Positions 6,778 to 62,119 of a stretch of DNA of 64,000 nucleotides are shown here, piece by piece. A program made the position numbers and the translations under genes. The notes beneath the pieces were generated by a model. That model searched no databases, was not told the origin of the DNA, and saw only the letters and a list, made by a program, of their open reading frames with translations. The stretch comes from a phage: the NCBI GenBank assembly GCA_020619395.1, contig GCA_020619395.1_4860.1; one strand, written 5' to 3'. Every line of letters begins with the position of its first letter. The stretch's first letter is position 1.

Positions 6778-9737
6778 TGACTACGAAAACGTACGACGCA
6801 TTATCGAAAGACTTGCTGCTGATGGCACATAACCCATCGGCAATGCAGTCATTAATGCTGAACCAGCTCCAAGACGTGCAGGACGCCGACGGGCAAATCC
6901 TGCTACGTGACCCGACCGACCCGGTGGTCTACATGACCGAGGTCGGAATTACGATGGGCCACACTATTATCCAGGGCGATCGGGACACCATTCCGAAAAT
7001 GTTCCCCTCTATGGCACAAACTCACGATGATCTGTTCCGCCACATGTCTGACGTGGATTATGTCGATGTTTTTGCCCAGCCATCACAAGCGACCTTACTG
7101 TTGCTTCTAGATGTCGACTCTCTATTAGCGAAGGCGATGCCGTTAAACGTGGCAGGTATTCGTAAAGTCGTGATTCCACGGGATACCGTCTTTACTGTTT
7201 CAGGTTACAACTTTGCCATTCAGTATCCCATCGAAATTCGAGTGCTGCCGTATGGTACCGTTGATAATCCAGCCTTCCAGGTCTTGTGGATTACCGAAAC
7301 CCAGTCACCGATATCGCCCGTAACCACTAACGCGTTGGACTGGGAACTGACAAGTGTTCCTAGCACACCGTCGCAGATACTGGCTATCCGTATTCCGGTG
7401 ATGCAGTACAGTGTAAAGGACGAGAACGATACGTTGTTGGGGCAGAACACGTTTGTGATGACGCGCACGTTCACCAACAAGTTCTTCTACGCACGGGTGT
7501 GGAATAAACCGTCCAATTCAAACACCTGGACAGAAATCCACCACACGCACAGTCGTGACGTTTACGATCCAAACACGCCTACGGCGCTGATTCAAGTCGT
7601 TAACCAGTCCATTCGTTGTACGATACCGTCTATCTACATGGCGAAGAACCTGGTAAGTGGTGAAATCCGCATGGACGTATATACGACCATCGGGCCACTC
7701 GACCTCGACGTTTCTGCATTCCCGGCGGACGAGTACACCTTCTCATTGCGCGACTTGAACGGTGAATACGATGCGGGATACATCAACCCGTTAAAATCAT
7801 TCTCCATCAAAATGCTGGTTGCGGAAGAAGGCAGTTACGCCACCGGGGGCCGTACACAACTTTCGTTTGATGAGTTGCGTGACCGTGTGGTAAACAATGC
7901 AGTGGGGATTCGCAAACTGCCAGTAACAGAGAAGCAGTTAGAAGCCACGGTATCGGATTACGGCCTGACCTTGTCTAAGCCAAACGACTACGTAACTGGG
8001 CGTACTTACTTCCTGACTGCGCCGATGCCGGAGTCCACGTTATCTAAAGTGAGTTCCCCTATCGGGACCATCACCGCCCCGCTGTACTTTAGCTGGGATG
8101 AACTGGTGAAACTGCCGACGGTCCGTATTAACGGCAACCGTTTGACGATTGAGCCAGATACACTGTATCGCTTTACGGATACCAGTCTGCAAATCGATGC
8201 GGAGATGACCATCCTTGCGAAGACCATGCGTAAAGAAGATTTGGTTAACGCGGGTAACACTAACCGTTACCTGTTCACGCCGTTCCATTACGTGGTGGAC
8301 ATTAACAACAAATCTTGCGATGTTCGTATTTACCAACTCGATAAACCGCAGTTGAACTCAAAACGTTTCGTTAGCACCAACGTGACAACGGAGCTGAGTG
8401 TTGTCACTGCAGATTATCAGATTGAGAAAACGGCCGAAGGTTATATCCTGCGCACTGTGACTAAATCAGAACCGCCATACCAGGCGTTAAGTGATGACCA
8501 AGTCTTTGCGCAGATTTCCTTCTCGCCACGCAACGCAGACGGTAAGTTGGCGTACATCAACGGCACCTTAGTGGGTCGTCAAGGTTCGGAGCGTGTATGG
8601 GAATTCTTGTTGAAAACCAATCTCGATGTTGACCGTAACGATGAGTTGATTATCAACAACACCCGAATCACCACCGAAGTGGATGTGGACACACCTGCAC
8701 CGTTGTTAACCGAGTATAACGTGTTCTACGGCTGTACGGGTTACTACCCCGGTAATTACGAACGCGCTGAAATGGATACAATGATTGTACCGCCTGCGCG
8801 CGATGGTATTGGGATTACACATGAGATTTTCAAAATCGAGCTGGGTAAAGCCATGTCCTATTACTGGCGAAAAGCACGTGCAGTAACGGACAGCATCAAC
8901 TACGAATACTACCAGGAGGACGTTCTGGCGTATTGGGAAAAGGATGTTATTAAAACCAAAGACGATGGCGTAACACCTGAGTACACGTACGACCCTGATG
9001 CTGTTCCACCGTTGCAAATCACGTACCTGCATCGTAAAGGCGATCCGAAGATAGACCCGAAGACCGGTGAACAAGAAATCGCTCACCACATTGGGGAACA
9101 AATCTTCGACGGGAACGGTCAGCCTATTATTGCGAAGCCGCGCAGTATTAAGTTCCGTAGTGAAATGGCTGTATTCGATGCCCGTTATAAGTTCGCAACC
9201 TCGAAAGCGGTTAAAGCGTACCTTGATAGCGTGATTGACAATATCATCAACTACGTTACGGTGGTACTACCGAATCTGAAACCGCTGCTGTTGGAGCAAA
9301 CTGAAGGCTTCTTTGTTCCTATCACCACGATGGGTTATATCGATGTACGTACCGAAGACGGAGTTGTGTCACCGTTGCCTGCTGAAAACCAGTTCACTGT
9401 CAAATATTACCTCACGGCAGCGAACCGAGCAAACAGCGAGCTTCTGGCACAAATCCGGAAACGGACTTCGCAAGTCATTAACGACTATCTGTCAACACAT
9501 CTGACCGTTTCAGCAACCGAGATCGGTAATGCGTTACGCAATACGCTTAACGATGCCATTATCGGTGTTGAACTCGACGACATGGGGCCAGATAAAGACC
9601 TGCGACTGTTCACTGTCATTACCGAAGCAGCGCGAGCTACAATTGGTAAGAAACTCGATATTGAAGCCAACGGCGACATCGGTTTGAAAGATGACATCGT
9701 ACTGTCGTACAACCGTCACGATACCGAAAAAGAATAA
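6777..9737 (+). CDS. large hypothetical protein (986 aa), possibly structural
   Basis: Long uninterrupted ORF, translationally coupled to 5515..6777, followed by a strong terminator; no catalytic motif recognised. Confidence 0.65.
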   Translation: MTTKTYDALSKDLLLMAHNPSAMQSLMLNQLQDVQDADGQILLRDPTDPVVYMTEVGITMGHTIIQGDRDTIPKMFPSMAQTHDDLFRHMSDVDYVDVFAQPSQATLLLLLDVDSLLAKAMPLNVAGIRKVVIPRDTVFTVSGYNFAIQYPIEIRVLPYGTVDNPAFQVLWITETQSPISPVTTNALDWELTSVPSTPSQILAIRIPVMQYSVKDENDTLLGQNTFVMTRTFTNKFFYARVWNKPSNSNTWTEIHHTHSRDVYDPNTPTALIQVVNQSIRCTIPSIYMAKNLVSGEIRMDVYTTIGPLDLDVSAFPADEYTFSLRDLNGEYDAGYINPLKSFSIKMLVAEEGSYATGGRTQLSFDELRDRVVNNAVGIRKLPVTEKQLEATVSDYGLTLSKPNDYVTGRTYFLTAPMPESTLSKVSSPIGTITAPLYFSWDELVKLPTVRINGNRLTIEPDTLYRFTDTSLQIDAEMTILAKTMRKEDLVNAGNTNRYLFTPFHYVVDINNKSCDVRIYQLDKPQLNSKRFVSTNVTTELSVVTADYQIEKTAEGYILRTVTKSEPPYQALSDDQVFAQISFSPRNADGKLAYINGTLVGRQGSERVWEFLLKTNLDVDRNDELIINNTRITTEVDVDTPAPLLTEYNVFYGCTGYYPGNYERAEMDTMIVPPARDGIGITHEIFKIELGKAMSYYWRKARAVTDSINYEYYQEDVLAYWEKDVIKTKDDGVTPEYTYDPDAVPPLQITYLHRKGDPKIDPKTGEQEIAHHIGEQIFDGNGQPIIAKPRSIKFRSEMAVFDARYKFATSKAVKAYLDSVIDNIINYVTVVLPNLKPLLLEQTEGFFVPITTMGYIDVRTEDGVVSPLPAENQFTVKYYLTAANRANSELLAQIRKRTSQVINDYLSTHLTVSATEIGNALRNTLNDAIIGVELDDMGPDKDLRLFTVITEAARATIGKKLDIEANGDIGLKDDIVLSYNRHDTEKE

Positions 9738-40280: not shown

Positions 40281-42134
40281 TTACAGTTTGAAGTTGCTCA
40301 GAGACACGCCCAGACCGAAATCGGAACCGCTTGCAGACAGGCCGTTGCCAGACAGCGTGAAGTCTTCCCCACCGTTGTTGAAGAACAGAGAGGTCGCCAT
40401 CGTGTTGTAGGCATTTACACCAGTCATAGACCAGGTGCAGTTGTTACGGACGAAGTCCAGCAGGCATTTACCGAAGATCGGGTTGATAGCCATATCCAGA
40501 GATTCACCGGTAGCTTGCGGTGCTTTGGATGCGAACAGAGAAGCGGCCAGTTTCAGCATGTAGATACGCTGTTGACGCTCGTTCAGTTCACGGTGGCTGT
40601 AGGACTGTGCGTTCAGGTAGCTATAGACGTCGTTCGCGTTATCACCCAGTTTGGTAACAACGGAAATCAGGTCCATATCCTGGAAGCTACGTTTCTGTGC
40701 AGTACCGGTGTAAACACCGGAAACAGTCGGTACGGCTGCTTTCACGATGTGGCTGCAATGGATGGTACCATTGAAGGCATCGCCCAGCTGTGCTTTCAGT
40801 GCAGAAGCAAATACTGCAGTGAAGCTGGTCGCTGCAACAACTTCGCCGTTCTGATCACGCGGGGACATGGAATTCAGAATAGCGAGCAGCTGTTTCAGAG
40901 AGTTGTCGTAACCGACCGCAATTTCAGACAGCATAGTAGACAGACCACCCAGACCGTTACCGGCACGATGGCTAACTACCAGTGCTGCTTCACGCGGTGC
41001 GAACATATCCAGGCAACCTTCGATAGCTTCACGGCTACCGTCGATTTTGGATACATCAGGACGAGCGTCAGCACCCCAGGACAGGTATTCTGCCACACGG
41101 GAGAACTTGCGATCTTGTTTGTTCAGACGTTTCACAAACAGGTCACGCCAGCCACCGATTGCCGCGATTTCTGCAAATGCAGCCAGCAGCAGCAGTTGAC
41201 GTTCATACGGTGCCATTGCACCTTCAGTTTGAGAATCGACCAGACTTACTACGATTTCAGCCTGCAGCTGTTTCAGGTCGTAGACGCCGTTAACGACAGG
41301 CTTCTGACCGGTGAAACGCATGTTGACGAAACCAGTACCGGATACACGCGGATACACCTGTACCTGATTGGTGTCCAGCAGAGTCGGAGTGGCGTCGGAT
41401 ACGTTGCTTGGGCTGTGCTCAACGGTGATTGCGAAATCAGCACGTTGTGCGTGGCCGTTAGCATCCACAACCGCACCATCTTCCAGCGGCATTACTGCAG
41501 CCTGATAACGGTCATGCTTACGCAGGTTCAGCGTACCCAGGTAGCCTGCGATACGACCGAAGATGCCCATCATCATCTGACCCATCAGAGTACGTGCCCA
41601 CTCAGCATCCAGAACTTTACCCAGGTCTGGTACGGAGTTGATGATCATGAAGTTCGCATTGGTCAGACCATGCGCTTCCATGATGTTTTTCTGTACTACT
41701 GCCAGCACGTCTTTGTTGAACAGTTCAGTGATGGTGTAGTAGTCTTCCTGGCCGTTGTTGGTAGTTTCTTTCAGACGCAGAGACTGACCGCGTTCAAAGA
41801 AGATAATACCGTACAGCCAGTGGCCCTGCCATTGGCCTGCGACATACGCCGCGGAACCCATTTCGTTACCCACGCCGGCGATGGTGCCCCAGCGGAACGC
41901 GTTGAGGTATTCGTTGCTTTTCTTCAGCTCGTCCAGGAGGTTGACGAAGTGCATTGCATAGGTGCTGATGTTGCGGATGCCAAATGCGTTATCGAATTGG
42001 CTGACAGTAGAAGTACCCGGCACAGCAGTTTGCACTTTTACAGTCTCGTTGCCCAGACCGCCCAGTGGTGCGGTGTCTTGAGTCTGAGTGTTGTTCTGCT
42101 GAGCGTTGTTGTTAGAGTCAACGATTTTTACCAT
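40281..42134 (-). CDS. abundant-protein candidate: phage nucleus shell protein (chimallin-like); alternatively a major virion protein
   Basis: 617-aa ORF with no enzymatic motifs, own promoter-like motif and terminator; sits immediately upstream of the beta-prime N gene, the arrangement recalled for phiKZ shell protein gp54 next to nvRNAP gp55. Size fits chimallin (about 600-700 aa). Inference only. Confidence 0.4.
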   Translation of the reverse strand: MVKIVDSNNNAQQNNTQTQDTAPLGGLGNETVKVQTAVPGTSTVSQFDNAFGIRNISTYAMHFVNLLDELKKSNEYLNAFRWGTIAGVGNEMGSAAYVAGQWQGHWLYGIIFFERGQSLRLKETTNNGQEDYYTITELFNKDVLAVVQKNIMEAHGLTNANFMIINSVPDLGKVLDAEWARTLMGQMMMGIFGRIAGYLGTLNLRKHDRYQAAVMPLEDGAVVDANGHAQRADFAITVEHSPSNVSDATPTLLDTNQVQVYPRVSGTGFVNMRFTGQKPVVNGVYDLKQLQAEIVVSLVDSQTEGAMAPYERQLLLLAAFAEIAAIGGWRDLFVKRLNKQDRKFSRVAEYLSWGADARPDVSKIDGSREAIEGCLDMFAPREAALVVSHRAGNGLGGLSTMLSEIAVGYDNSLKQLLAILNSMSPRDQNGEVVAATSFTAVFASALKAQLGDAFNGTIHCSHIVKAAVPTVSGVYTGTAQKRSFQDMDLISVVTKLGDNANDVYSYLNAQSYSHRELNERQQRIYMLKLAASLFASKAPQATGESLDMAINPIFGKCLLDFVRNNCTWSMTGVNAYNTMATSLFFNNGGEDFTLSGNGLSASGSDFGLGVSLSNFKL

Positions 42135-42273: not shown

Positions 42274-42288
42274 AGATAATATCAATCT
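42274..42288. promoter_or_regulatory. AGATAATATC promoter-like motif upstream of + gene 42320
   Basis: agataatatcaatct, about 32-46 bp upstream of ATG 42320. Confidence 0.3.
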
Positions 42289-43763: not shown

Positions 43764-46043
43764 TTACTCCTCCGCTTCTTCCCCATCCTCTTCCTCTCCA
43801 TCACGTTCAGATTTCTTAACGTACTCGCCGCTACCTAATTCTTCCTTGACCGAGTCTACGGACTCGCCGTAGTAATCCGAAAGCAGACGAGTTCTGTTCT
43901 TGTCCATCATGAAGACACCCAGACATTCCAGGATGTGATAGTAAGGTTCTACTGTGGAGAATGCGCTTCGACGTGTGTCTGCAGCATCAATCAGCTCCGG
44001 AGGAATACCGAAGTTTTCCACCAAGAACTCTGGCAGTATCAGAGTACGATAGGTGCGATAGTTGTTCTCTTCGAACCACCGTGTTGCAGTGGTCTTAATC
44101 ATCGGGTCTTTAATGTTTTCCAGCCACTCTTTAACGGCTGTTTTGTTCTCCAGGTTTACCGGAAGTTTCACGGCGTCATAAGGCGGTTCGTCCAGGTAGC
44201 CGTACTTCGGTCCAAAGATGGCGTTGTACATGCGGTGATAGTGGTAGCTCTTTTCATCATCTTCAGAGTACGCACTACGGTCTTTGACGTTGGTTGTTTT
44301 CAGGTAGCCTGCTTTACCAGCGCGAATAGAATCCACCACAACGTGCTCAATTGCAGCAACCTTTTCCAGCAGAGGCAGAATCTTAATCTTGTCACCACGT
44401 GCCACGATCTCACAGAGTTCTTTAATCGTGCGTTTGAACTCTTTCATGACCACCGGAGGAATGTTCGACGTACGTAAAGACACGCCCTTAACTTCTAACT
44501 CAGGGTCAGACTTCAACTGCCCTTCCTGGCCAGTGATGATGGAGAAATAGTGTTTTGCTTTCGTGGTTAACGCAAAGGAGTCGAACTTAAATTCGTTCTT
44601 CATTGCGTACAAAAACAGACGCTCTTTCGCCACACCGATATTCGCCGACATACTCGCCATCAGATGACGTAAGTGCTGGGTTGCGATATAAATCATCGCA
44701 TCCGATACGCGCGTAGCTTCACGACCGTAATGTTGGCCGGTATACCACTGCGCCCACCACTGTGCAGTCATCATCGTGGAGTCGGTATCAGACACCACGC
44801 CGACACGACGAACCACGTCGGGCATCCTGGCAATGTTGATTGGCAGGTTTTTGGTGGTCAGGATATTACGAATCAAGCACGCGTACTTACCGATGGTTTT
44901 CTGCAGATACACAGCTGAGCGAATCAGCTCTTTGTATTTTTCCTGCTTATCCCACGGTTCCGCTTTGTTCGTGTTTTCGTCTTTGAGTTTAACGTCAGAG
45001 AACGACTTACCTAACGGCACGATATCAGTACGGAACTGCGAGATAATGATCTGCATGTCACCGTCGATAGAGCGCTCAGCGGCATCCCAATCAGTGATCT
45101 CGTCTTCCATCTCCTCGGCAATCAGCGCGCCGATAAATCCGCGCATGAATTCATCGTTGTATTTCGCCAGGTGGTAGAAGTCACCCATGTAGACAAACGC
45201 TGCACGTACCAGCGGGCTACAATTACCGACGTAGTGACGAATGAACTCCAGCCCTTCGTCGTTACGGAAGTAAAACTCTGCAGAGTACATAACCACTTCC
45301 ATAACCTCGTCCACTGTTGGGTAGTGGAGGTTATAGAGTTCCATACACTTCTTGAACTCCGCAAAGTTAGTCAGTGTACCGATAGAAAGTAGGTGGTCGA
45401 TAACACGGGACGGCGTGTCGTAGTGACGATTACCGCCCAGTAGACGTTCGTTGCCCGCGTTACCGAACGATGTAGCCGTACGGCAGGTTGACGTCAATAC
45501 AGAGTGCGAGGACTGGTTAAAGATTACCGTGTACGGTGATGAGAATGCACCCGACATTCCGTTGTTCAACGTCTTAACAGCGTTCTGTTCGTTCTTTTTG
45601 TTAATACGCAGAACTTCATTACCCGCAGCACCTGCTGCGTACATCTCTTTCTTAACGACCGCACGCTTACGCACGTTCTCTGCGGTAAATTCAGCAAGCT
45701 TAGAGCGCTTGACGTGCTCAGGCAGATAAAAGGTCAGCGACGGTGCAGAAATAATCTGCTTATCAATCACTGTACGGAACAGTTTATCTACCGTGGTGTA
45801 TTTTTCTTCGCGATCGCCGGTCTTTTGATTGCGCACCCACATCTTACACACGGGGAATTCGTGTACTAACTCACCACCAGGTTGGAACATTTCTTCGACC
45901 TGCTGTCGACAGAACTCCAAAGAATATTTCCCGTTGGTGACGGTATGAATGTAGAGCGCCAGTTGTTCGTAGTACGCATCGATAACGTCAATGTCGCGAT
46001 GATACTCGTCTTGACTAAGACGAAATGGTGAATTGTAGTCCAC
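43764..46043 (-). CDS. family-B DNA polymerase, polymerase-domain part (candidate)
   Basis: 759-aa ORF with motif A-like SAPSLTFYLP (cf. D-x-x-SLYPS), motif B-like KTLNNGMSGAF (K-x3-N-S-x-Y-G) and motif C VVSDTDS (YGDTDS); no exonuclease motifs in this ORF. Confidence 0.55.
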   Translation of the reverse strand: MDYNSPFRLSQDEYHRDIDVIDAYYEQLALYIHTVTNGKYSLEFCRQQVEEMFQPGGELVHEFPVCKMWVRNQKTGDREEKYTTVDKLFRTVIDKQIISAPSLTFYLPEHVKRSKLAEFTAENVRKRAVVKKEMYAAGAAGNEVLRINKKNEQNAVKTLNNGMSGAFSSPYTVIFNQSSHSVLTSTCRTATSFGNAGNERLLGGNRHYDTPSRVIDHLLSIGTLTNFAEFKKCMELYNLHYPTVDEVMEVVMYSAEFYFRNDEGLEFIRHYVGNCSPLVRAAFVYMGDFYHLAKYNDEFMRGFIGALIAEEMEDEITDWDAAERSIDGDMQIIISQFRTDIVPLGKSFSDVKLKDENTNKAEPWDKQEKYKELIRSAVYLQKTIGKYACLIRNILTTKNLPINIARMPDVVRRVGVVSDTDSTMMTAQWWAQWYTGQHYGREATRVSDAMIYIATQHLRHLMASMSANIGVAKERLFLYAMKNEFKFDSFALTTKAKHYFSIITGQEGQLKSDPELEVKGVSLRTSNIPPVVMKEFKRTIKELCEIVARGDKIKILPLLEKVAAIEHVVVDSIRAGKAGYLKTTNVKDRSAYSEDDEKSYHYHRMYNAIFGPKYGYLDEPPYDAVKLPVNLENKTAVKEWLENIKDPMIKTTATRWFEENNYRTYRTLILPEFLVENFGIPPELIDAADTRRSAFSTVEPYYHILECLGVFMMDKNRTRLLSDYYGESVDSVKEELGSGEYVKKSERDGEEEDGEEAEE

Positions 46044-46083
46044 GTCTGGCCCCTTGGTTTTTTACTCAGCTATAAGACTTGCG

Positions 46084-46120
46084 GGATACGTGAAAAAAGA
46101 AAAAAAATAACCCACTCCGA
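46084..46120 (-). terminator. rho-independent terminator after CDS 46135..46545
   Basis: Hairpin 46102-46119 (cccact / ccgaag / agtggg) with + strand A-run 46084-46100. Confidence 0.6.
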
Positions 46121-46134
46121 AGAGTGGGCTTACT

Positions 46135-46545
46135 TTAACCGGCAATACTCTCAACGATTTCAAAATCGACGTCATTGAAACCATTGGCAGCCAGGGCACG
46201 TTTAAGGTCGTCAATCTCCTGTTTGTTATCCAGGGTGACGGTGAAGCGCACCTTCGTGTTTTCGATAATCTGAACATCACGAATCCAGGCATCGGCAGCG
46301 ACTTTTGGTTTGCCGTCAACACCTTTGAAAATCAGATACGTGTATTTGTTCACATTATCTTCTGGCTGGGAAACAATGGAAGAGTAGATATTCTTCTGCT
46401 CCGCCATCACATCCATATAACTTTTGGCCATCTCGTAGCCAACGCCGGTTGCCAGAATAATTACACGCGTCTCTTGCCCTTTCAAAGGGGTGTCGTAAAC
46501 AATGTTAACTTTTTGCCCAGCGACCAGTGTGCGTAAATCGAACAT
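46135..46545 (-). CDS. small hypothetical protein (last gene of a 9-gene small-protein operon)
   Basis: 136-aa ORF; start overlaps the stop of 46545..47144. Confidence 0.55.
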   Translation of the reverse strand: MFDLRTLVAGQKVNIVYDTPLKGQETRVIILATGVGYEMAKSYMDVMAEQKNIYSSIVSQPEDNVNKYTYLIFKGVDGKPKVAADAWIRDVQIIENTKVRFTVTLDNKQEIDDLKRALAANGFNDVDFEIVESIAG

Positions 46546-47144
46546 TATTCCTCCTCAGGAACATCAATAAGCAGCCTCATATCCAAAGCATTGGTCACTG
46601 GTGTTTTCGGGAAGTCCACCTTGAGAACCAACGTACGGATAGCGCCATTATGCGCCTCTAAGAACATCTTCACCGGCTCAACATAATGCGCCATAACTGC
46701 CTCCGTTACGGCGGTCGCCATTAGATCCAACGTGTAGTGCTTGAGCGTGGCCCAGTGTGAGCTGTCTTGCTCTTTGTACATCAACGCTAAATCTAACAAT
46801 GGTGTCAGCCCGTTAAAATGTGACTCGGTGCTGGCTTCCATTGCAACATTAAACTTCCACCGACGGTACTCGTCAGTCAGTAACGTAAAGAAGTCGTGCA
46901 AGAACGTAAGGTCGGTGCGAGGCAACATGCAACGAAACTCGTACGTATAGCTAGTCAGTGTTTCACGTATAAGTTCGTGTATCTCGTCCTGGTCCAATTC
47001 TTTTACGGGTATCTCCACGGTGATACGCGGCAGGCGGACTACGGTGTCAACCACCAAATCCAAAAACCGCATACCGTCCGGAAGATACCCCACGACCCCC
47101 AAGTCCACATTAATCAAGTGGTTGGCGATCACCTTGTAGATCAT
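46545..47144 (-). CDS. hypothetical protein
   Basis: 199-aa ORF in the operon. Confidence 0.55.
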   Translation of the reverse strand: MIYKVIANHLINVDLGVVGYLPDGMRFLDLVVDTVVRLPRITVEIPVKELDQDEIHELIRETLTSYTYEFRCMLPRTDLTFLHDFFTLLTDEYRRWKFNVAMEASTESHFNGLTPLLDLALMYKEQDSSHWATLKHYTLDLMATAVTEAVMAHYVEPVKMFLEAHNGAIRTLVLKVDFPKTPVTNALDMRLLIDVPEEE

Positions 47145-47153
47145 TCGTACTCC

Positions 47154-47585
47154 TTAACATTCAACACAGATGAGTGCGTTGCCAATTTCATTCATAAGGA
47201 GTGAAACCTTTGTCTTTTTTGCTCCGTCTTCTGGAGTCAAGCCAGCCATGCCCCACACACGTTCTATCACGGAAAGGATTTCATAGAACCGAACATCATC
47301 CTTAATCCCACTGCTCATGCTGTAGCAGTTTAGAGGCAGCACCTTTTCAGTACCCCACATCCCGCGCAACTGTTCCAGTATCAACGCAGGGTCTGGGGGA
47401 ATAAAAGTAAGAAAGTTCTTACCCTTACCTAGCCCATTAACAATAGAACGAACCGTTAATTCGGCGTAACTGGCCAGAAACAAATAAGCGACAGCGGGCT
47501 CGATCTCGCTAGTATCAGCAATCTCGGCCCGTGCCAACAACGACTCATATTTGAAGACTTCGCCTATGGTCATGTACAGTTTCAT
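47154..47585 (-). CDS. hypothetical protein
   Basis: 143-aa ORF with 4-nt overlap with the upstream gene. Confidence 0.55.
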   Translation of the reverse strand: MKLYMTIGEVFKYESLLARAEIADTSEIEPAVAYLFLASYAELTVRSIVNGLGKGKNFLTFIPPDPALILEQLRGMWGTEKVLPLNCYSMSSGIKDDVRFYEILSVIERVWGMAGLTPEDGAKKTKVSLLMNEIGNALICVEC

Positions 47586-48070
47586 TCGCAGATTAACACC
47601 ACATCGTTAAAACTATCACCTACATACGTTTGATATCGACCCGGATACAGCGACTCTATCAATCCAGCGAAACCAGTTAAGTTTGTTAACTCTTCGACCA
47701 ACAAACTTACCGCAGCGCCGAAGGCAGCTTGATGTTGTTCGGGCGAACCTTGTGCTGCCAGAAACGTCGTATCGACAGACATTTCTTTAGCGAACTGGTC
47801 AACGGACAGACCATCGGTCACCAACTCCCAATTGCCCAGAGGTTCAAGCGTGTCTTCCTGTAACAAATCAACCATTGTCGATGGGTCACGAGTTTTCACA
47901 CCGATGATATACGCAAACGCAAAACGTTGATAAAAATCACGTATCTGCGTTTCATCAATCTCCAGGTTACTGGCTTCCAATACACGCAATGCTGCTTCGC
48001 GAACGTGCTCGTAAAACCGAGTCGCGCTATATTGGTTCGCAATATCCGCCACATCAAACAGAACGCTCAT
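47582..48070 (-). CDS. hypothetical protein
   Basis: 162-aa ORF with 4-nt overlap. Confidence 0.55.
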   Translation of the reverse strand: MSVLFDVADIANQYSATRFYEHVREAALRVLEASNLEIDETQIRDFYQRFAFAYIIGVKTRDPSTMVDLLQEDTLEPLGNWELVTDGLSVDQFAKEMSVDTTFLAAQGSPEQHQAAFGAAVSLLVEELTNLTGFAGLIESLYPGRYQTYVGDSFNDVVLICE

Positions 48071-48576
48071 ACACGACCTCCGAGATTACCGATAAGCAAA
48101 TCGATAACAGGCAGAAGTTGTGGGGTGATTCGCTCGTACGCTTCCTGGCTGGCAAACTGTGGGAATTTATCACCACCGTTATAGTCTAATAAGAATTCGA
48201 CATCCGCCGGATTGCGCGTTGTGTATTGTGCACCGACCCAACGACCGTAGTGAGTAAACCAATAAGGAGACTGCGATACGGCGGTCATATACGCACGACC
48301 GATGTTTTGAATTGCGGTGCCGTAAGTGATTACTTGCTCATTTTCCAACACAACGCCGTGCGCATTCAGTGTACGAGAAACAAACCCAAAGGTATTGTTC
48401 ATCATAAACTTTAACTCACTACCAATGGTTCCACGTTCCACGAAGCTCATGGCGGTATTGATTATCGAGTTCAAATCGTCATTCACTTCGCGGAGCACAT
48501 CGTTTGGCGAAAACTCCGTTAACGGCCCAGCCAATAACTGATAGCCGGGGATATAAAAATGAGATCGCTCAATCAT
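48067..48576 (-). CDS. hypothetical protein
   Basis: 169-aa ORF with 8-nt overlap. Confidence 0.55.
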   Translation of the reverse strand: MIERSHFYIPGYQLLAGPLTEFSPNDVLREVNDDLNSIINTAMSFVERGTIGSELKFMMNNTFGFVSRTLNAHGVVLENEQVITYGTAIQNIGRAYMTAVSQSPYWFTHYGRWVGAQYTTRNPADVEFLLDYNGGDKFPQFASQEAYERITPQLLPVIDLLIGNLGGRV

Positions 48577-48976
48577 TGTAAGTAACCCCTGTAGTTAACA
48601 TTTTCCAGACACCGTCTCCTACATGCCAGAGGAGAAAGTCGGATTGTGGTAAATAAGTCATGTCCTCGTCGATTGCTTGCCAGATGCAATCGGTGTCCCG
48701 TATCAACAACTCAAATCGACAAAGAGCCCAGTATTTTGCCGACGTGGTTGGAGTAATGATTGGGTTATCGTGAACATACTCCATAAAGAACTGGCGTATC
48801 ATGCTATCGATAACGCCATATTTTTTCCGCAGAACATGCAACCGAACAATTTGCTCGATATAGTCGTCAAGCTCTACCGCAGCATCCTGGTAATCGATGC
48901 CGAGATTCTCTTTGACGAGTGCGGTGAGTCGGCAAGTCAATCGCACGAACTCAGTATAAACCGTCATCATAGACAT
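48569..48976 (-). CDS. hypothetical protein
   Basis: 135-aa ORF. Confidence 0.5.
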   Translation of the reverse strand: MSMMTVYTEFVRLTCRLTALVKENLGIDYQDAAVELDDYIEQIVRLHVLRKKYGVIDSMIRQFFMEYVHDNPIITPTTSAKYWALCRFELLIRDTDCIWQAIDEDMTYLPQSDFLLWHVGDGVWKMLTTGVTYND

Positions 48977-49259
48977 CTGTTACCTTACGTGGAATGAAAC
49001 GGAGAATTCTGTCTGCTTGATTATAATGATACCGATACCCTTTCGGAGGAATGCCCATTTCCTCACAGATAGCACGATGAACGTGTGACGCGATGGTGTG
49101 GATTTCCCGCGAATGACTTCTGGGACGATAACACCTAACAATCAGTGAGACTGTTTCTGTGTCCCACGCACCGTGTTCTGTAAATGTCGGAATCATGTAT
49201 TCGAGCATACAGAGAATGATATGCTTCAACCCCGTGTTAACATCATACATGCTGAACAT
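48951..49259 (-). CDS. hypothetical protein
   Basis: ORF-track 48951..49418 trimmed to Met at 49259, which removes a 146-nt overlap with 49273..49923; start uncertain. Confidence 0.4.
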   Translation of the reverse strand: MFSMYDVNTGLKHIILCMLEYMIPTFTEHGAWDTETVSLIVRCYRPRSHSREIHTIASHVHRAICEEMGIPPKGYRYHYNQADRILRFIPRKVTDVYDDGLY

Positions 49260-49272
49260 GATGTCGCTGGGG

Positions 49273-49923
49273 TCATTCAATATCCTGACGTATGCCGTCG
49301 AGGCAATGTGATCGATCAGTACCAGACGGACGATATCGTTTGTTTGGGAAGCATTGGCGGTAGTGGATGAATCTGATGTCTTCTCCAATTTGTAACTCCA
49401 GAGATTGCACCTGCCCACGACGGGTTATGTGTGGTTCCAGTTTAATCGTCGCATAACGATTAAACGGGTGTTTGGCGGCTTTCACAGCATTCTCCACAAG
49501 CGCATGGATACTGTCCAGGAAACTGTTGTAACAGTCTTCGAATGCTAATCCGATAAGATATTCGGTAGAACGTAAAATCGCTACGGTCTCTTTCGTCTTA
49601 TTAACCGGAGTACCCAAACCGCCACTGGAAACGTGTGTACGTTCCACAGGAACTGTTTTCGGTGGAAGTATGATCTGGTCAGCCACCAACATCATCGTGA
49701 GATTAAAAGCGTCAGTATAAGGTTCCAGCAAAGGTTCCATACGTGCATTAGGCATTTCCGGAACGGAGTAAAAGATATCTTCGAGCGCAGTGTGTAACAG
49801 TTGTACAGTTAACATCTCGCGTTCTTTTTGGCTCATCCGCAGAGCGGTAGCGTACTGGGAAGCATCGACAGGCCCCCAGAAGCTAGAATGAACCGCAGCT
49901 GGTTCGAGGTATATTCTGACCAC
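49273..49923 (-). CDS. hypothetical protein
   Basis: 216-aa ORF. Confidence 0.5.
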   Translation of the reverse strand: MVRIYLEPAAVHSSFWGPVDASQYATALRMSQKEREMLTVQLLHTALEDIFYSVPEMPNARMEPLLEPYTDAFNLTMMLVADQIILPPKTVPVERTHVSSGGLGTPVNKTKETVAILRSTEYLIGLAFEDCYNSFLDSIHALVENAVKAAKHPFNRYATIKLEPHITRRGQVQSLELQIGEDIRFIHYRQCFPNKRYRPSGTDRSHCLDGIRQDIE

Positions 49924-50153
49924 GTTTGCACAACTCCATTTTTGTAATGAAAGGGATAGCTATGGTTTCGGCCCAACGCCGAAATAACAAACCACGCTTC
50001 CGTGCCAAAATAACTTTCGGCAATGCGTGTCCACTCGCGTGGAAACTCATGCGTGCCGGGATAAATGACTTCTTGTATCGCGCACAGTAACATGTCCGCA
50101 GGCACAATCTGTTCATTTGTCCCTGGAGAGAAATTAAAGAACATGCGCGTCAT
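49833..50153 (-). CDS. hypothetical protein (first gene of the operon)
   Basis: 106-aa ORF; promoter-like motif 31-45 bp upstream; overlaps 49273..49923 by 91 nt so one of the two starts is probably wrong. Confidence 0.4.
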   Translation of the reverse strand: MTRMFFNFSPGTNEQIVPADMLLCAIQEVIYPGTHEFPREWTRIAESYFGTEAWFVISALGRNHSYPFHYKNGVVQTWSEYTSNQLRFILASGGLSMLPSTLPLCG

Positions 50154-50183: not shown

Positions 50184-50198
50184 AGATAATATCTATGC
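50184..50198. promoter_or_regulatory. AGATAATATCTAT promoter-like motif
   Basis: agataatatctatgc in the divergent region between minus start 50153 and plus start 50317. Confidence 0.3.
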
Positions 50199-50316: not shown

Positions 50317-51129
50317 ATGAATGTTATCGACTACTGTCTGCGTAAAATCAGACAGCATATTCCTGCCCCGATTCTACAGGCGGCTTTTGTTCCAGAAAAC
50401 CTCAAGTTACTGGGAATTGCAAGCTCTGTAGATAACGAAATCCAACAACGTGTTATTCGTGAGATTCTGGTCCCTGAAATCTCCAGAATGGGGCAGTATC
50501 AAGAAGTAGATTTGCAAGGTGTCCCTTGGGATAACGACACGCAAGATTATTTCAGTCGCGTGTATTATCTCGACGACATCAAAACAGGCGGTCGTCCTAT
50601 TCTGGATGCCCACATTTCTGTAACACCCGTTGCCGGACAGGCGTACACCATGCCTCCCGCAGGTTCATATCTGGACGGTGCCACCTCTGGCGTATTAGCA
50701 TCCACCCAGCAAGTGGTTGATAGTCAGTCGGCGATGCCACGTATCGCCTCACCAGAGGTCGAGGTACTCGGCCCGAATACCATCCGTATCAAAGACCCAG
50801 GCATGTTCGTTTACTCTACCAAACTCGTGGTGAAGTACGAACTATCCCAGGAGATGAACGAAATCAAACCAGCATTCTATCCGGTTGTAGGTGAGCTGGC
50901 AGTCATGGCTGTTAAGCAATATATTTACAACACCATGATCTTCGACATGGATTCCGGTAAACTGGAAAATGGTATGGAGTTCGGTGCCTTCAGAAACGTT
51001 ATTGAAGGTTACTCGGACGCGGGTCAAATGTTCGAAGACACCTTACCGAAAATGCAACGTTGTCTGGTCCACAACGACAACATCGGAAACCGTTGGAACT
51101 ACATGAACGGTGGACGCTTCAAGTCGTAA
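50317..51129 (+). CDS. hypothetical protein
   Basis: ORF-track 50065..51129 trimmed to ATG 50317 (MNVIDY...), which has AGGAG 8 nt upstream and leaves room for the divergent promoter region. Confidence 0.5.
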   Translation: MNVIDYCLRKIRQHIPAPILQAAFVPENLKLLGIASSVDNEIQQRVIREILVPEISRMGQYQEVDLQGVPWDNDTQDYFSRVYYLDDIKTGGRPILDAHISVTPVAGQAYTMPPAGSYLDGATSGVLASTQQVVDSQSAMPRIASPEVEVLGPNTIRIKDPGMFVYSTKLVVKYELSQEMNEIKPAFYPVVGELAVMAVKQYIYNTMIFDMDSGKLENGMEFGAFRNVIEGYSDAGQMFEDTLPKMQRCLVHNDNIGNRWNYMNGGRFKS

Positions 51130-52142: not shown

Positions 52143-53090
52143 CTAACCAAACTGATTTTCATACGCACGGAGCCATTGCTCATGCGGGAATAAATTATAG
52201 ACCTCTTCGGGAACGTGTAACATCAGCCACCTCACGCCAATACTGCTCGCGTACCACGAAGCGTATGGATAGATTGAATCCTTCGGTGGTGCTAACGGTG
52301 ATGGTAACTGTTGAACATCGGTGACAGGGTTACCGATAACTTCACCGCCGGGTAGTACAGCCGCTAGCATCCAGGTCGTTGGGTAGTAATTACCGCTATC
52401 TGTTTTAGCCAGATAACGTAAGTCTAAGTTTTCTGGCTCGAGCTGTTTGCGTAACGTTAAGAACAGGCACAACTCAAACGGTGCGATGTTCAATCTGGTG
52501 TTCGGGAGACTGTGTCCTTTATACCAGTTTGCATAGCCTGCCTGGAGAGCGTGGATTGCCAGAATCGGTCTATCCACATCCACAGGTAACTGGAGCGGTG
52601 TAATGTTCAAATCAGCTACAGTTGGAAACATTACCGGTTCAGGATTGATAAGCTGGTTATACGCTTCCCGTAAACGATTCATCTTGATGCGCAATGCACC
52701 GTTCGTTAACATCAGCCTACGTCCGTGGTTTTCATCTGTAGCCCGTTCCGTAAAGAGTGCATCGCCGAAATGGCGAACGAATTCGATACTTAAGAACCTG
52801 GTGTGGTACGTAGGTGAGGTATACTCAATAAACTCGTTCTGTTGGAATCCGAAGTAGTGGAGCAATTCGCCGTTACCCCATTTGAACACAAATCGGAATT
52901 CGAAGTTCTTGTACTGTAGTGCATCTTTTACAGCACGTATCGCTTCCCAAGCGTCGAAATTCGTTCTGTATAACGAACCGAAAGGGAAGAATCTGCGAGG
53001 TAAGAAAGGTCGAATGCGGGTTGCTTCTGCGAGGCTGAAGCCATCCTGGTTTAATCCTTCAATAGCACTAGGATTACTTGGTCTGTACAT
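52143..53090 (-). CDS. hypothetical protein
   Basis: 315-aa ORF with promoter-like motif upstream (53150-53164). Confidence 0.55.
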   Translation of the reverse strand: MYRPSNPSAIEGLNQDGFSLAEATRIRPFLPRRFFPFGSLYRTNFDAWEAIRAVKDALQYKNFEFRFVFKWGNGELLHYFGFQQNEFIEYTSPTYHTRFLSIEFVRHFGDALFTERATDENHGRRLMLTNGALRIKMNRLREAYNQLINPEPVMFPTVADLNITPLQLPVDVDRPILAIHALQAGYANWYKGHSLPNTRLNIAPFELCLFLTLRKQLEPENLDLRYLAKTDSGNYYPTTWMLAAVLPGGEVIGNPVTDVQQLPSPLAPPKDSIYPYASWYASSIGVRWLMLHVPEEVYNLFPHEQWLRAYENQFG

Positions 53091-53149: not shown

Positions 53150-53164
53150 AGGTAATATCTATCT
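53150..53164. promoter_or_regulatory. GTAATATCTATCT promoter-like motif
   Basis: ggtaatatctatctg, 60-75 bp upstream of minus start 53090. Confidence 0.3.
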
Positions 53165-60742: not shown

Positions 60743-62119
60743 ATGTCTGAACTGGTTTATGATTTCAGTACCGGTTGTTATCGCGATACCGGAGTGAAGG
60801 TTGCCGTCGAATCATTCGGACGTGACCCATTCTTCGACGATGACACGTATTCTACGGGCTTGTATTACGACTATGGTTTTGGCGGCTACGTCCCGATGGG
60901 TTTGGTGGTTGCTGCAGAAGCCATGAAGAATGACCGATTACGTAAAGTGTTTGACGAATGTTTTAAACATGTCGTCATCGATCGTCGTTTTGCAAAGCAA
61001 ATTCAGCTTCACGTGGATAACATTCTTAAACGTGAAGGCAATGTGGAGTGGTTAGGGTCTAATCTATTAGGCGTCCACACCATTCGTTTCTACGATTCTG
61101 ACCGTAACCGCTTTTTTGAAGATGTCTTGAAAGTCGACGAAGACTATCTGTTCGAGATGATTAAAGAATCGGGCACGATTAACACCGACTGGGCAGTGGC
61201 GGGCGATCCGTATAACCTTTCCACGGTCTATACGCTACATCGGATGATGTCGAAGTTCGCCGATCGTGAAATTCATGCCGCGGCAGTGTCGTTGGTAACG
61301 TTGCTGCAATTCAAATTCTACTCCAGTATATATTACCACTTCTTCCCCAAGCCGGTCGACATGGCCGCCGCCGACGCCGCATACTCGATGTTGTCGTTAA
61401 AGTTCGATATCCGTCGTTTAGGCAACTGGGGCCTGCACATGCAGGAGCGTTCAGAATACTTCTGTTCTCCGGAGTACCCAAACTACGACGCGGTTAAACG
61501 TTTTGATACGCCAGACCTGGTATTGCGTTTTATCACCGACCTGAACACCCGTACCAAACAAACTGTGAAGGACTATTACGCGGTATTGGACAAAGTGCGT
61601 CGTGATAACAGTCGTGTAATTACGCAGTCAACCCGAATTGAGTTAGACGGTGAATCGATTATCCGTGACAAAGTGGGTGCGCTGGATATCGCTAAGCAGA
61701 ATTTGTTCGATGCGTCTTACGACATCAACAATCTCTACAAAGAGCAATTGGCAAAAGTGGTATTGGAGCTAGTACCCAAAGCATCTCCCGCGGCACTGAA
61801 AACTTTGCTGGCGTATATTGCAAGTCTACCGCTTGGCAAAAAGCGTGATGAGATTAACGCTATCATGGAGGACACGCTATCGCACGCGTTCGATGAGATT
61901 GTTACCTCTCGTCTGAACTTTAACGATGCGAGTACGGTTCTACTGCGTATGCGTTCGTTGTACCAGGCTTCGAAGTCCCCTAACCCATACGTGTTATCGT
62001 TGCGTGAACGGATTGAGAAACTGGCCGCACGGGAAACACACATCCGTCATGAAGCCGCTCTGGCTGCCTTACGTAATGCGTTACTGTTGTACTTCTTGAT
62101 CCGCTCTTTGCAGAAATGA
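60743..62119 (+). CDS. hypothetical protein
   Basis: 458-aa ORF followed by a strong terminator. Confidence 0.6.
   Translation: MSELVYDFSTGCYRDTGVKVAVESFGRDPFFDDDTYSTGLYYDYGFGGYVPMGLVVAAEAMKNDRLRKVFDECFKHVVIDRRFAKQIQLHVDNILKREGNVEWLGSNLLGVHTIRFYDSDRNRFFEDVLKVDEDYLFEMIKESGTINTDWAVAGDPYNLSTVYTLHRMMSKFADREIHAAAVSLVTLLQFKFYSSIYYHFFPKPVDMAAADAAYSMLSLKFDIRRLGNWGLHMQERSEYFCSPEYPNYDAVKRFDTPDLVLRFITDLNTRTKQTVKDYYAVLDKVRRDNSRVITQSTRIELDGESIIRDKVGALDIAKQNLFDASYDINNLYKEQLAKVVLELVPKASPAALKTLLAYIASLPLGKKRDEINAIMEDTLSHAFDEIVTSRLNFNDASTVLLRMRSLYQASKSPNPYVLSLRERIEKLAARETHIRHEAALAALRNALLLYFLIRSLQK

Follow-up and report, generated by a model that had tools for sequence, protein, structure and literature searches.

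The 64,000-nucleotide (nt) phage contig GCA_020619395.1_4860.1 (GenBank assembly GCA_020619395.1; the whole stretch is called the window below) carries nine consecutive minus-strand genes at positions 46135-50153, which were shown to form one conserved transcription unit. The anatomy of the unit is secure: an early-type promoter is followed by nine coupled genes and a terminator, with the gene of a baseplate protein in the last place. The source phage resembles SPN3US and belongs to the PhuZ-less clade of the Chimalliviridae, the family of jumbo phages that form a nucleus; the nine genes correspond to SPN3US gp9-gp17, with 99% identity. Of their products, gp17 is a component of the tail baseplate, and gp9-gp16 are eight non-virion proteins. 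The best explanation of the data as a whole, which falls just short of being probable, is that of a conserved early unit with gp9-gp16 as phage-directed intracellular factors.

Architecture of the gp9-gp17 unit

The 4.3-kb region was 97.6-99.4% identical, in the reverse orientation, to the Salmonella jumbo phages of the species Seoulvirus SPN3US. The corresponding genes are annotated as nine hypothetical genes in SPN3US and phage 1252. Together with the list of open reading frames (ORFs), the annotation of these close relatives confirmed the nine consecutive minus-strand ORFs which an earlier note, made from the letters of the DNA only, had described as an operon. The features of the locus are as follows (aa, amino acids; pI, isoelectric point; E, E-value).

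50185..50195, minus strand: predicted early promoter motif TAGATATTATC of the virion RNA polymerase type, lying 32 nt before the start codon (ATG) of gp9
49833..50153, minus strand: gp9 homologue, 106 aa, with an AAGGAG ribosome-binding site; phrog_9874 (unknown function); 19 loci, all of the clade
49273..49836, minus strand: gp10 homologue, 187 aa if started at the ATG at 49836 (ATGA overlap with the stop of gp9); clade loci
48951..49280, minus strand: gp11 homologue, 109 aa (TTG at 49280) or 102 aa (ATG at 49259), both given as candidate starts
48569..48976, minus strand: gp12 homologue, 135 aa; clade loci, and a CR5-group counterpart
48067..48576, minus strand: gp13 homologue, 169 aa, the best conserved among gp9-gp16; clade loci
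47582..48070, minus strand: gp14 homologue, 162 aa, pI 4.2, net charge -17; clade loci
47154..47585, minus strand: gp15 homologue, 143 aa; clade loci, and a CR5-group counterpart by profile comparison
46545..47144, minus strand: gp16 homologue, 199 aa, acidic; its stop overlaps the gp17 start (TAATG)
46135..46545, minus strand: gp17 homologue, 136 aa, a PF20287 member homologous to gp49, the baseplate ring (HR1) protein of phiKZ
46093..46130, minus strand: intrinsic-terminator-like hairpin (9-base-pair stem, UUCG loop) and T-run, directly after the gp17 stop
46069..46107, minus strand: T-run-CACG-N15-CTTATAG element between the terminator and the gp18 start, a candidate non-early promoter of the polymerase gene
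43764..46043, minus strand: gp18, divergent family B DNA polymerase (PF20286, E 4e-284), the first gene downstream of gp17
50317..51129, plus strand: gp8, the divergently transcribed neighbour, homologue of phiKZ gp42 (portal adaptor; DUF7484, PF24302, E 1e-96)

The sizes listed are those obtained with the likeliest starts. All nine products were small, in agreement with the earlier estimate of about 100-215 aa, the upper figure of which reflected a GTG start set too far upstream in the second ORF. Of the eight junctions between the genes, six were overlaps of 1-8 nt, one was a longer overlap, and one was a gap. The overlaps were determined to be 4 nt at gp9/gp10 (ATGA), gp13/gp14 (ATGA) and gp14/gp15, 8 nt at gp12/gp13, 1 nt at gp16/gp17 (TAATG), and 17-26 nt at gp11/gp12; the 9-nt gap was found between gp15 and gp16. 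The gp10/gp11 junction is an 8-nt overlap if gp11 starts with TTG and a 13-nt gap if it starts with ATG. The stop/start overlaps of 1-8 nt, which had been noted at several junctions, were thus found at most of them. The geometries of the gp9/gp10, gp13/gp14, gp15/gp16 and gp16/gp17 junctions recurred in most of 12 clade members, which indicates that the tight packing is conserved and non-accidental. Since the genes are so tightly packed, the translation of gp9-gp17 is probably coupled.

The comparison of the gp9-gp17 block with that of phage SEGD1 resulted in 88 synonymous and 11 non-synonymous differences, with a ratio of non-synonymous to synonymous changes (pN/pS) of 0.04. These are therefore real genes, and the purifying selection that acts on them in the species is strong. 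The corresponding numbers for the DNA polymerase gene were 61 and 2, respectively. In SEGD1 (locus L001, ~8040; ~50000 in the window), a 1-nt deletion in a CCCGG run shifts the reading frame of gp9, and the gene is unannotated in the SEGD1 record; the frameshift reflects a sequencing error or else a knock-out that arose naturally. Several SPFM records (LR5359xx) gave fragmented, multi-piece protein matches in the gp9-gp17 region, which suggests error-rich assemblies that also give rise to odd entries in protein databases (P0006-P0010, P0053-P0057).

The motif TAGATATTATC was located upstream of gp9 at 50195-50185 on the minus strand. The pattern AKATATTAYC was matched 8 times in the window compared with 0.26 matches expected, and this number was equalled in none of 100 shuffles. 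Seven of the eight matches are minus-strand ones and precede genes of that strand, one of which lies beyond the left edge of the window. In addition to gp9, the motif precedes the ChmA shell gene (42192, 42285), gp5 (53161) and other minus-strand genes. In Huxley and CR5 it is conserved before the gene that opens the block, and it was identical in SPN3US, SEGD1 and phage 1252. The published early-promoter consensus is TATATTAC in phiKZ and TTTYARRYAKATATTATYWWADTG in OBP and N1M2 (PMC7058600, PMC7598289), and such motifs define early promoters read by the virion RNA polymerase (PMC7598289). The flanked motif upstream of gp9, TTTTGCATAGATATTATCTTCGTGA, agrees with the OBP/N1M2 consensus at most positions and contains the core of the phiKZ TATATTAC; in phiKZ, the early motif stands upstream of the shell gene as well, as it does in the window. 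Thus, TAGATATTATC is a predicted chimallivirus early promoter, the motif itself pointing to the early class.

A sigma-70 promoter upstream of gp9 was rejected. The scan detected no sigma-70 site there and no excess over shuffled sequence in the window, and the related phages do without the host RNA polymerase (PMC7598289), which counts against this reading. The promoter-like motif noted earlier near 50184 is real, but it is not a sigma-70 site. For SPN3US-like phages, no transcriptome or mapped transcription start was found in the searchable literature.

The two motifs of the ChmA gene (40281-42134, minus strand) are arranged in tandem, the farther-upstream copy at 42285 being slightly variant, and recall the two transcription starts reported for phiKZ gp54. 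Two more matches to the early pattern (ATATATTACC) were found at 61328-61337 on the plus strand and at 92-101 on the minus strand; one of them lies within the plus-strand ORF 60743-62119.

Directly after the gp17 stop, the hairpin AGCCCACTC-TTCG-GAGTGGGTT was found at 46130-46109 on the minus strand, followed by a T-run down to 46093. According to the scan, 5 of the 9 base pairs of the stem are G-C pairs, and 14 of the next 16 nt are T. A GC-rich hairpin directly before a T-run is the mark of an intrinsic (factor-independent) terminator, and the element was predicted to be one. The earlier note had placed a terminator at 46084-46120; the hairpin and the T-run are real, although slightly displaced from there (46130-46093). 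The 80 nt that follow the stop codon of the gp17 counterpart were folded in 16 chimallivirus loci, including those of phiKZ, 201phi2-1, OBP, N1M2, Joad, Aphrodite1, RSL2, Deimos-Minion and Moabite. A strong hairpin was detected at the same position in all 16, and a terminator is also marked at this position by the annotators of Moabite. The presence of the hairpin in all the folded loci indicates that the boundary of the unit before the polymerase gene is ancient.

The terminator is part of a composite element that occurs twice in the window, at 46130-46069 and 52128-52067, both on the minus strand. It consists of a UUCG-loop hairpin, TTTTTTTTCTTTTTTCACG, 14-15 nt and CTTATAG. The first copy is located between gp17 and the polymerase gene, and the near-identical second one between gp5 and gp6 (T-run to CTTATAG at 52108-52067). 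The arrangement T-run...CAC(G/A)...TTATAG upstream of the polymerase gene was kept in phiEaH2, Huxley, a Kwan-like contig and the locus L019. Judged by its sequence, the CACG-N15-CTTATAG element is a candidate later promoter for the polymerase gene, and the composite element may combine a terminator with a promoter of a non-early class.

gp17 as a baseplate protein

The gp17 product matched Pfam PF20287 with 120.9 bits (cut-off 25) and E 3e-35 over residues 8-124 of 136. Its family was found by jackhmmer in 85 of the 95 collected chimallivirus loci, phiKZ-type phages included, and gp17 aligned with phiKZ gp49 over the full length at about 19% identity. The family profile matched the PDB entry 9xqs 'PHIKZ049' and a second solved homologue, 11lx/36za; as the profile contained the phiKZ sequence, the 9xqs match identifies the chain and is not independent evidence. 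In the 2026 cryo-electron microscopy atlas of phiKZ, gp49 is located in the baseplate, where 12 dimers form the hexagonal ring HR1 (PMC13250141). For SPN3US, gp17 is paired with phiKZ ORF049 and marked as structural in the published Table S1. By mass spectrometry (Table S4), 21, 19 and 21 spectra of gp17 were obtained from SPN3US virions and none from tailless particles, which identifies gp17 as a tail protein. The knock-down of phiKZ gp49 abolishes plaques, and this phenotype fits an essential part of the baseplate.

Consequently, gp17 is a tail baseplate protein and a homologue of the phiKZ HR1 ring protein gp49; by analogy with phiKZ, it presumably occupies the corresponding place in the SPN3US baseplate. 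Like gp49, gp17 is encoded directly upstream of the polymerase gene and is tail-associated in the virion. The two proteins differ in that the solved structure is that of phiKZ, to which gp17 has only about 19% identity.

PF20287 is named "SH3 fold domain associated with phage DNA polymerases" (SH3DP), a name that rests on gene neighbourhood. The link between gp17 and the polymerase is gene adjacency only, and the terminator-like hairpin lies between the two genes in 16 of 16 loci. A role of gp17 as a DNA polymerase partner was initially accepted from the Pfam name and was dropped on the evidence of the cryo-electron microscopy and mass spectrometry. According to the solved structures (9xqs, 11lx/36za) and the virion mass spectrometry, the PF20287 family is a baseplate/tail component and its Pfam name is misleading. 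With gp17, the earlier statement that none of the nine products has a recognisable motif proved wrong. The note had also named conserved structural proteins, detectable by profile search, as the result that would speak against its interpretation, and one of the nine genes encodes such a protein. What remains of that interpretation is a single transcription unit running from promoter to terminator with conserved tight coupling.

gp9-gp16 and their slot in Chimalliviridae

None of gp9-gp16 was detected in the virion mass spectrometry of SPN3US, the listing of Table S4 running gp8, gp17, gp21, and all eight are non-virion proteins. They are soluble, and six of them have a pI of 5.0 or lower; gp14 and gp16 are strongly acidic, the latter with an acidic C-terminal tail. 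In iterative jackhmmer searches, each of gp9-gp16 was found in only 16-20 of the 95 chimallivirus loci, all belonging to the PhuZ-less clade, and the clade as published matches the set of phages carrying these genes. Gene content and order were constant in the 19 clade loci with the block, the hosts being Salmonella, Erwinia, Cronobacter, Escherichia and Proteus. The best conserved protein, gp13, occurred in 72 records of phages infecting Erwinia, Salmonella, Escherichia, Cronobacter and Proteus, without exception clade members. Across the clade, the identity of gp9-gp16 was 24-58% where that of the polymerase was 69-85%, which shows that these proteins diverge far faster than the adjoining polymerase.

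Searches of gp9-gp16 against Pfam, NCBIfam and PADLOC returned nothing informative, and the PHROGs matches were all small and of unknown function. The PADLOC result is weak evidence because this database covers defence rather than anti-defence proteins. No sequence match was obtained in PDB, where gp13 and gp16 were searched as profiles and the other six as single sequences, and no paralogy among the nine block genes was detected by hhalign. By jackhmmer and profile-profile comparison, links to the block families of other clades were limited to the CR5-group counterparts of gp12 and gp15, that of gp12 being recovered only by profile-profile comparison (hhalign probability 95%). A full HMMER scan with the gp16 profile against 1.84 billion representative proteins resulted in 20 clusters, the genuine ones all belonging to the clade family; a match to a 6,790-aa protein was spurious and of low complexity.

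The AlphaFold2 model of gp13 had a predicted local distance difference test score (pLDDT) of 89 and a predicted template-modelling score (pTM) of 0.86. The corresponding values of the gp16 model, a small sheet packed on a helical bundle, were 83 and 0.79. Both proteins are thus predicted to fold into confident alpha/beta structures. In the Foldseek comparison of gp13 with BFVD, one borderline match beyond its own family was obtained, A0A1S6L237 (E 4e-3, template-modelling score (TM) 0.60/0.69). A tentative assignment of this entry to Erwinia phage Yoloswag was dropped, the first 50 kb of Yoloswag being non-chimallivirus (DnaB helicase, DNA polymerase I). The list also contained insignificant matches enriched in small chimallivirus proteins: B3FK53 and B3FK54 of 201phi2-1 (153 and 276 aa; adjacent accessions) and the 287-aa Phabio protein gp064. 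The former were equated with gp46-/Imp2-family genes of 201phi2-1 by size and adjacency only, and the latter with the Imp2-position gene of Phabio by size. For a 168-aa match from Aeromonas phage D3, no corresponding gene was found in the D3 block. Taken from models, these matches to small chimallivirus proteins are a weak hint and not evidence of homology.

The order of the locus was conserved in every clade examined. It opens with the portal-adaptor gene on the opposite strand, often followed by PhuZ; next come the block of 5-9 small genes, the homologue of gp49 and the gene of the DNA polymerase, and then a head-protein gene on the opposite strand, the shell gene ChmA and a non-virion RNA polymerase subunit gene. 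The block of small genes turns over between clades, while the DNA polymerase stays 27-37% identical. In the window, the PhuZ position of other chimalliviruses is occupied by gp5 (315 aa, 52143-53090, minus strand), which has its own early motif at 53161. The first guess, made by position, that gp5 is PhuZ was rejected; no tubulin signal was detected in Pfam or by hhalign, and the clade is published as PhuZ-less.

In phiKZ, the slot holds gp43-gp48, including the nuclear-import factors Imp2 (gp47) and Imp4 (gp48). The RecA-like protein depends for its import on Imp2, which also enters the nucleus, and host TopA depends on Imp4. Both have been described as restricted to Pseudomonas phiKZ-like phages, and their genes tolerate no transposon insertions. 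An early transcription start maps to the first gene of the phiKZ block. The phiKZ and SPN3US blocks share the slot, after the portal-adaptor gene (phiKZ gp42/SPN3US gp8) and before the gp49 homologue and the polymerase, and in both the proteins are small, non-virion, and members of lineage-restricted families. Both also matter for fitness, as seen from the missing transposon insertions in phiKZ and from the strong purifying selection in SPN3US. In contrast, no sequence or profile homology of gp9-gp16 to gp47/gp48 was detected by jackhmmer in the 95 loci or by hhalign of the cluster profiles, the gp16 model showed no structural relative beyond its own family and the gp13 model only insignificant matches, and the number of genes is different. 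Import is a known function of phiKZ Imp2 and Imp4 and a putative one of the SPN3US proteins.

In many other clades (loci L040-L095, for example L086 at ~7000-9400), a tandem array of 3-5 paralogues of 120-200 aa was found upstream of the gp49 homologue. The array clusters (c9, 20, 23, 25, 26, 28 and 45) were connected by hhalign probabilities of mostly 92-98% (73% for c25), with weaker links to others, and no characterisation of this superfamily was found in the literature searched. It resembles gp9-gp16 in slot, protein size and tight packing. However, gp9-gp16 lack mutual paralogy and any profile link to the superfamily.

Possible roles of gp9-gp16 and their significance

In the explanation we favour, gp9-gp16 would be intracellular factors with the phage's own machinery as their target. 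This role is suggested by three properties of the proteins: constant presence in the clade, fast evolution despite purifying selection, and location in the slot of Imp2 and Imp4. Most likely they would be clade-specific accessory or adaptor factors of the phage nucleus, for example in cargo-specific import, and would co-evolve with clade-specific partner surfaces. Taken separately, this assignment to the phage machinery, with a nucleus or import accessory as its likeliest form, draws on the analogy with phiKZ and is possible though doubtful.

Several points weigh against it. Neither sequences nor profiles link gp9-gp16 to Imp2, Imp4 or the block families of other clades, and position is a weak argument, the same slot also holding an unrelated baseplate gene and, in other clades, a different family of tandem paralogues. 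It is unusual for an early operon to end with a baseplate gene, and other, unrecognised promoters may also serve the unit, the promoter class of which rests on the motif and not on a mapped transcription start. Only two of the eight proteins, gp13 and gp16, were modelled. The Foldseek comparison of the gp16 model with viral models returned only its own family. For gp13, the sole borderline match, A0A1S6L237, was not traceable to a phage, and the matches to Imp2-family proteins were insignificant (E 0.46-5, TM 0.18-0.38).

A serious rival, although a rather unlikely one, is that gp9-gp16 are early host-takeover or anti-defence proteins directed at ribosomes, RNA polymerase, nucleases or defence systems. 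The early-type promoter would suit such proteins, as would their small size, acidity, missing annotation and lack of known relatives, and their rapid divergence between genera; moreover, host-directed activities are known to abound among the early genes of related jumbo phages (PMC5312081). Anti-defence islands, however, usually gain and lose genes from one close relative to the next, whereas the content and order of this block are constant across clade members infecting at least five host genera, and of the features by which such islands are recognised, variable content was absent from the 19 clade loci and a match to defence-related families from the PADLOC search, the latter being a weak result. 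The strong purifying selection within the species is likewise unfavourable to host-takeover. The block is also located in the core locus of the family, among the genes of the DNA polymerase, the nuclear shell and the non-virion RNA polymerase, and not in a variable region, and the characterised phiKZ genes of the same slot are import factors.

Two minor rivals, both improbable, concern the neighbouring genes. Some of gp9-gp16, gp16 above all, could be non-virion assembly factors or chaperones for gp17 or the tail. The 1-nt overlap between the gp16 stop and the gp17 start, a junction kept (-1 or 0) in most clade members, is consistent with this role, as are the multi-copy ring formed by the phiKZ homologue of gp17 (12 dimers) and the absence of gp16 from virions. 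An early promoter would nevertheless be odd for tail morphogenesis, the phiKZ genes just upstream of gp49 encode import factors and not tail factors, and gp17 is family-universal whereas gp16 is clade-restricted.

Alternatively, gp9-gp16 could be accessory subunits of the replisome (processivity, single-strand-binding or primosome-like) around the adjacent polymerase. Throughout the family, the polymerase gene comes directly after the block; gp14 and gp16 are acidic, the latter in its C-terminal tail as well, and chimalliviruses are not known to have recognisable clamp, clamp-loader or single-strand-binding genes. Replisome parts would, however, be expected to be conserved with the polymerase, yet the block families turn over completely; in all clades a terminator stands between the block and the gene of the polymerase, and the PF20287 gene, long assumed to be polymerase-associated, proved to encode a baseplate protein.

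Returning to factors of the phage's own machinery, a bolder version, unlikely as it stands, would be that the PhuZ-less clade swapped the whole slot block for eight proteins with unseen folds. These would form a module for the licensing of nuclear cargo or for the organisation of a spindle-less nucleus, and the slot would be a hot-spot at which import specificity is re-invented in each lineage.

The genes of the unit already carry the annotation 'hypothetical' in many dozens-strong genome records, and the virion status of gp17 and the identity of gp18 are published. New are the definition of the operon, the assignment of its promoter and terminator, the finding that the eight families are clade-restricted yet always present, the positional parallel with Imp2/Imp4, and the misleading Pfam label of gp17. 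An anonymous nine-gene block thereby becomes a defined early operon of a nucleus-forming phage, with one gene explained as that of a baseplate ring protein and with gp9-gp16 as a short, well-delimited list of candidates that is always present within the clade. Should gp9-gp16 prove to be ordinary host-directed proteins of the early class, the block would be routine. If they are import or nucleus factors, they would provide a second genetic system, as amber-mutant genetics is available in SPN3US, for a process that has been dissected only in phiKZ.

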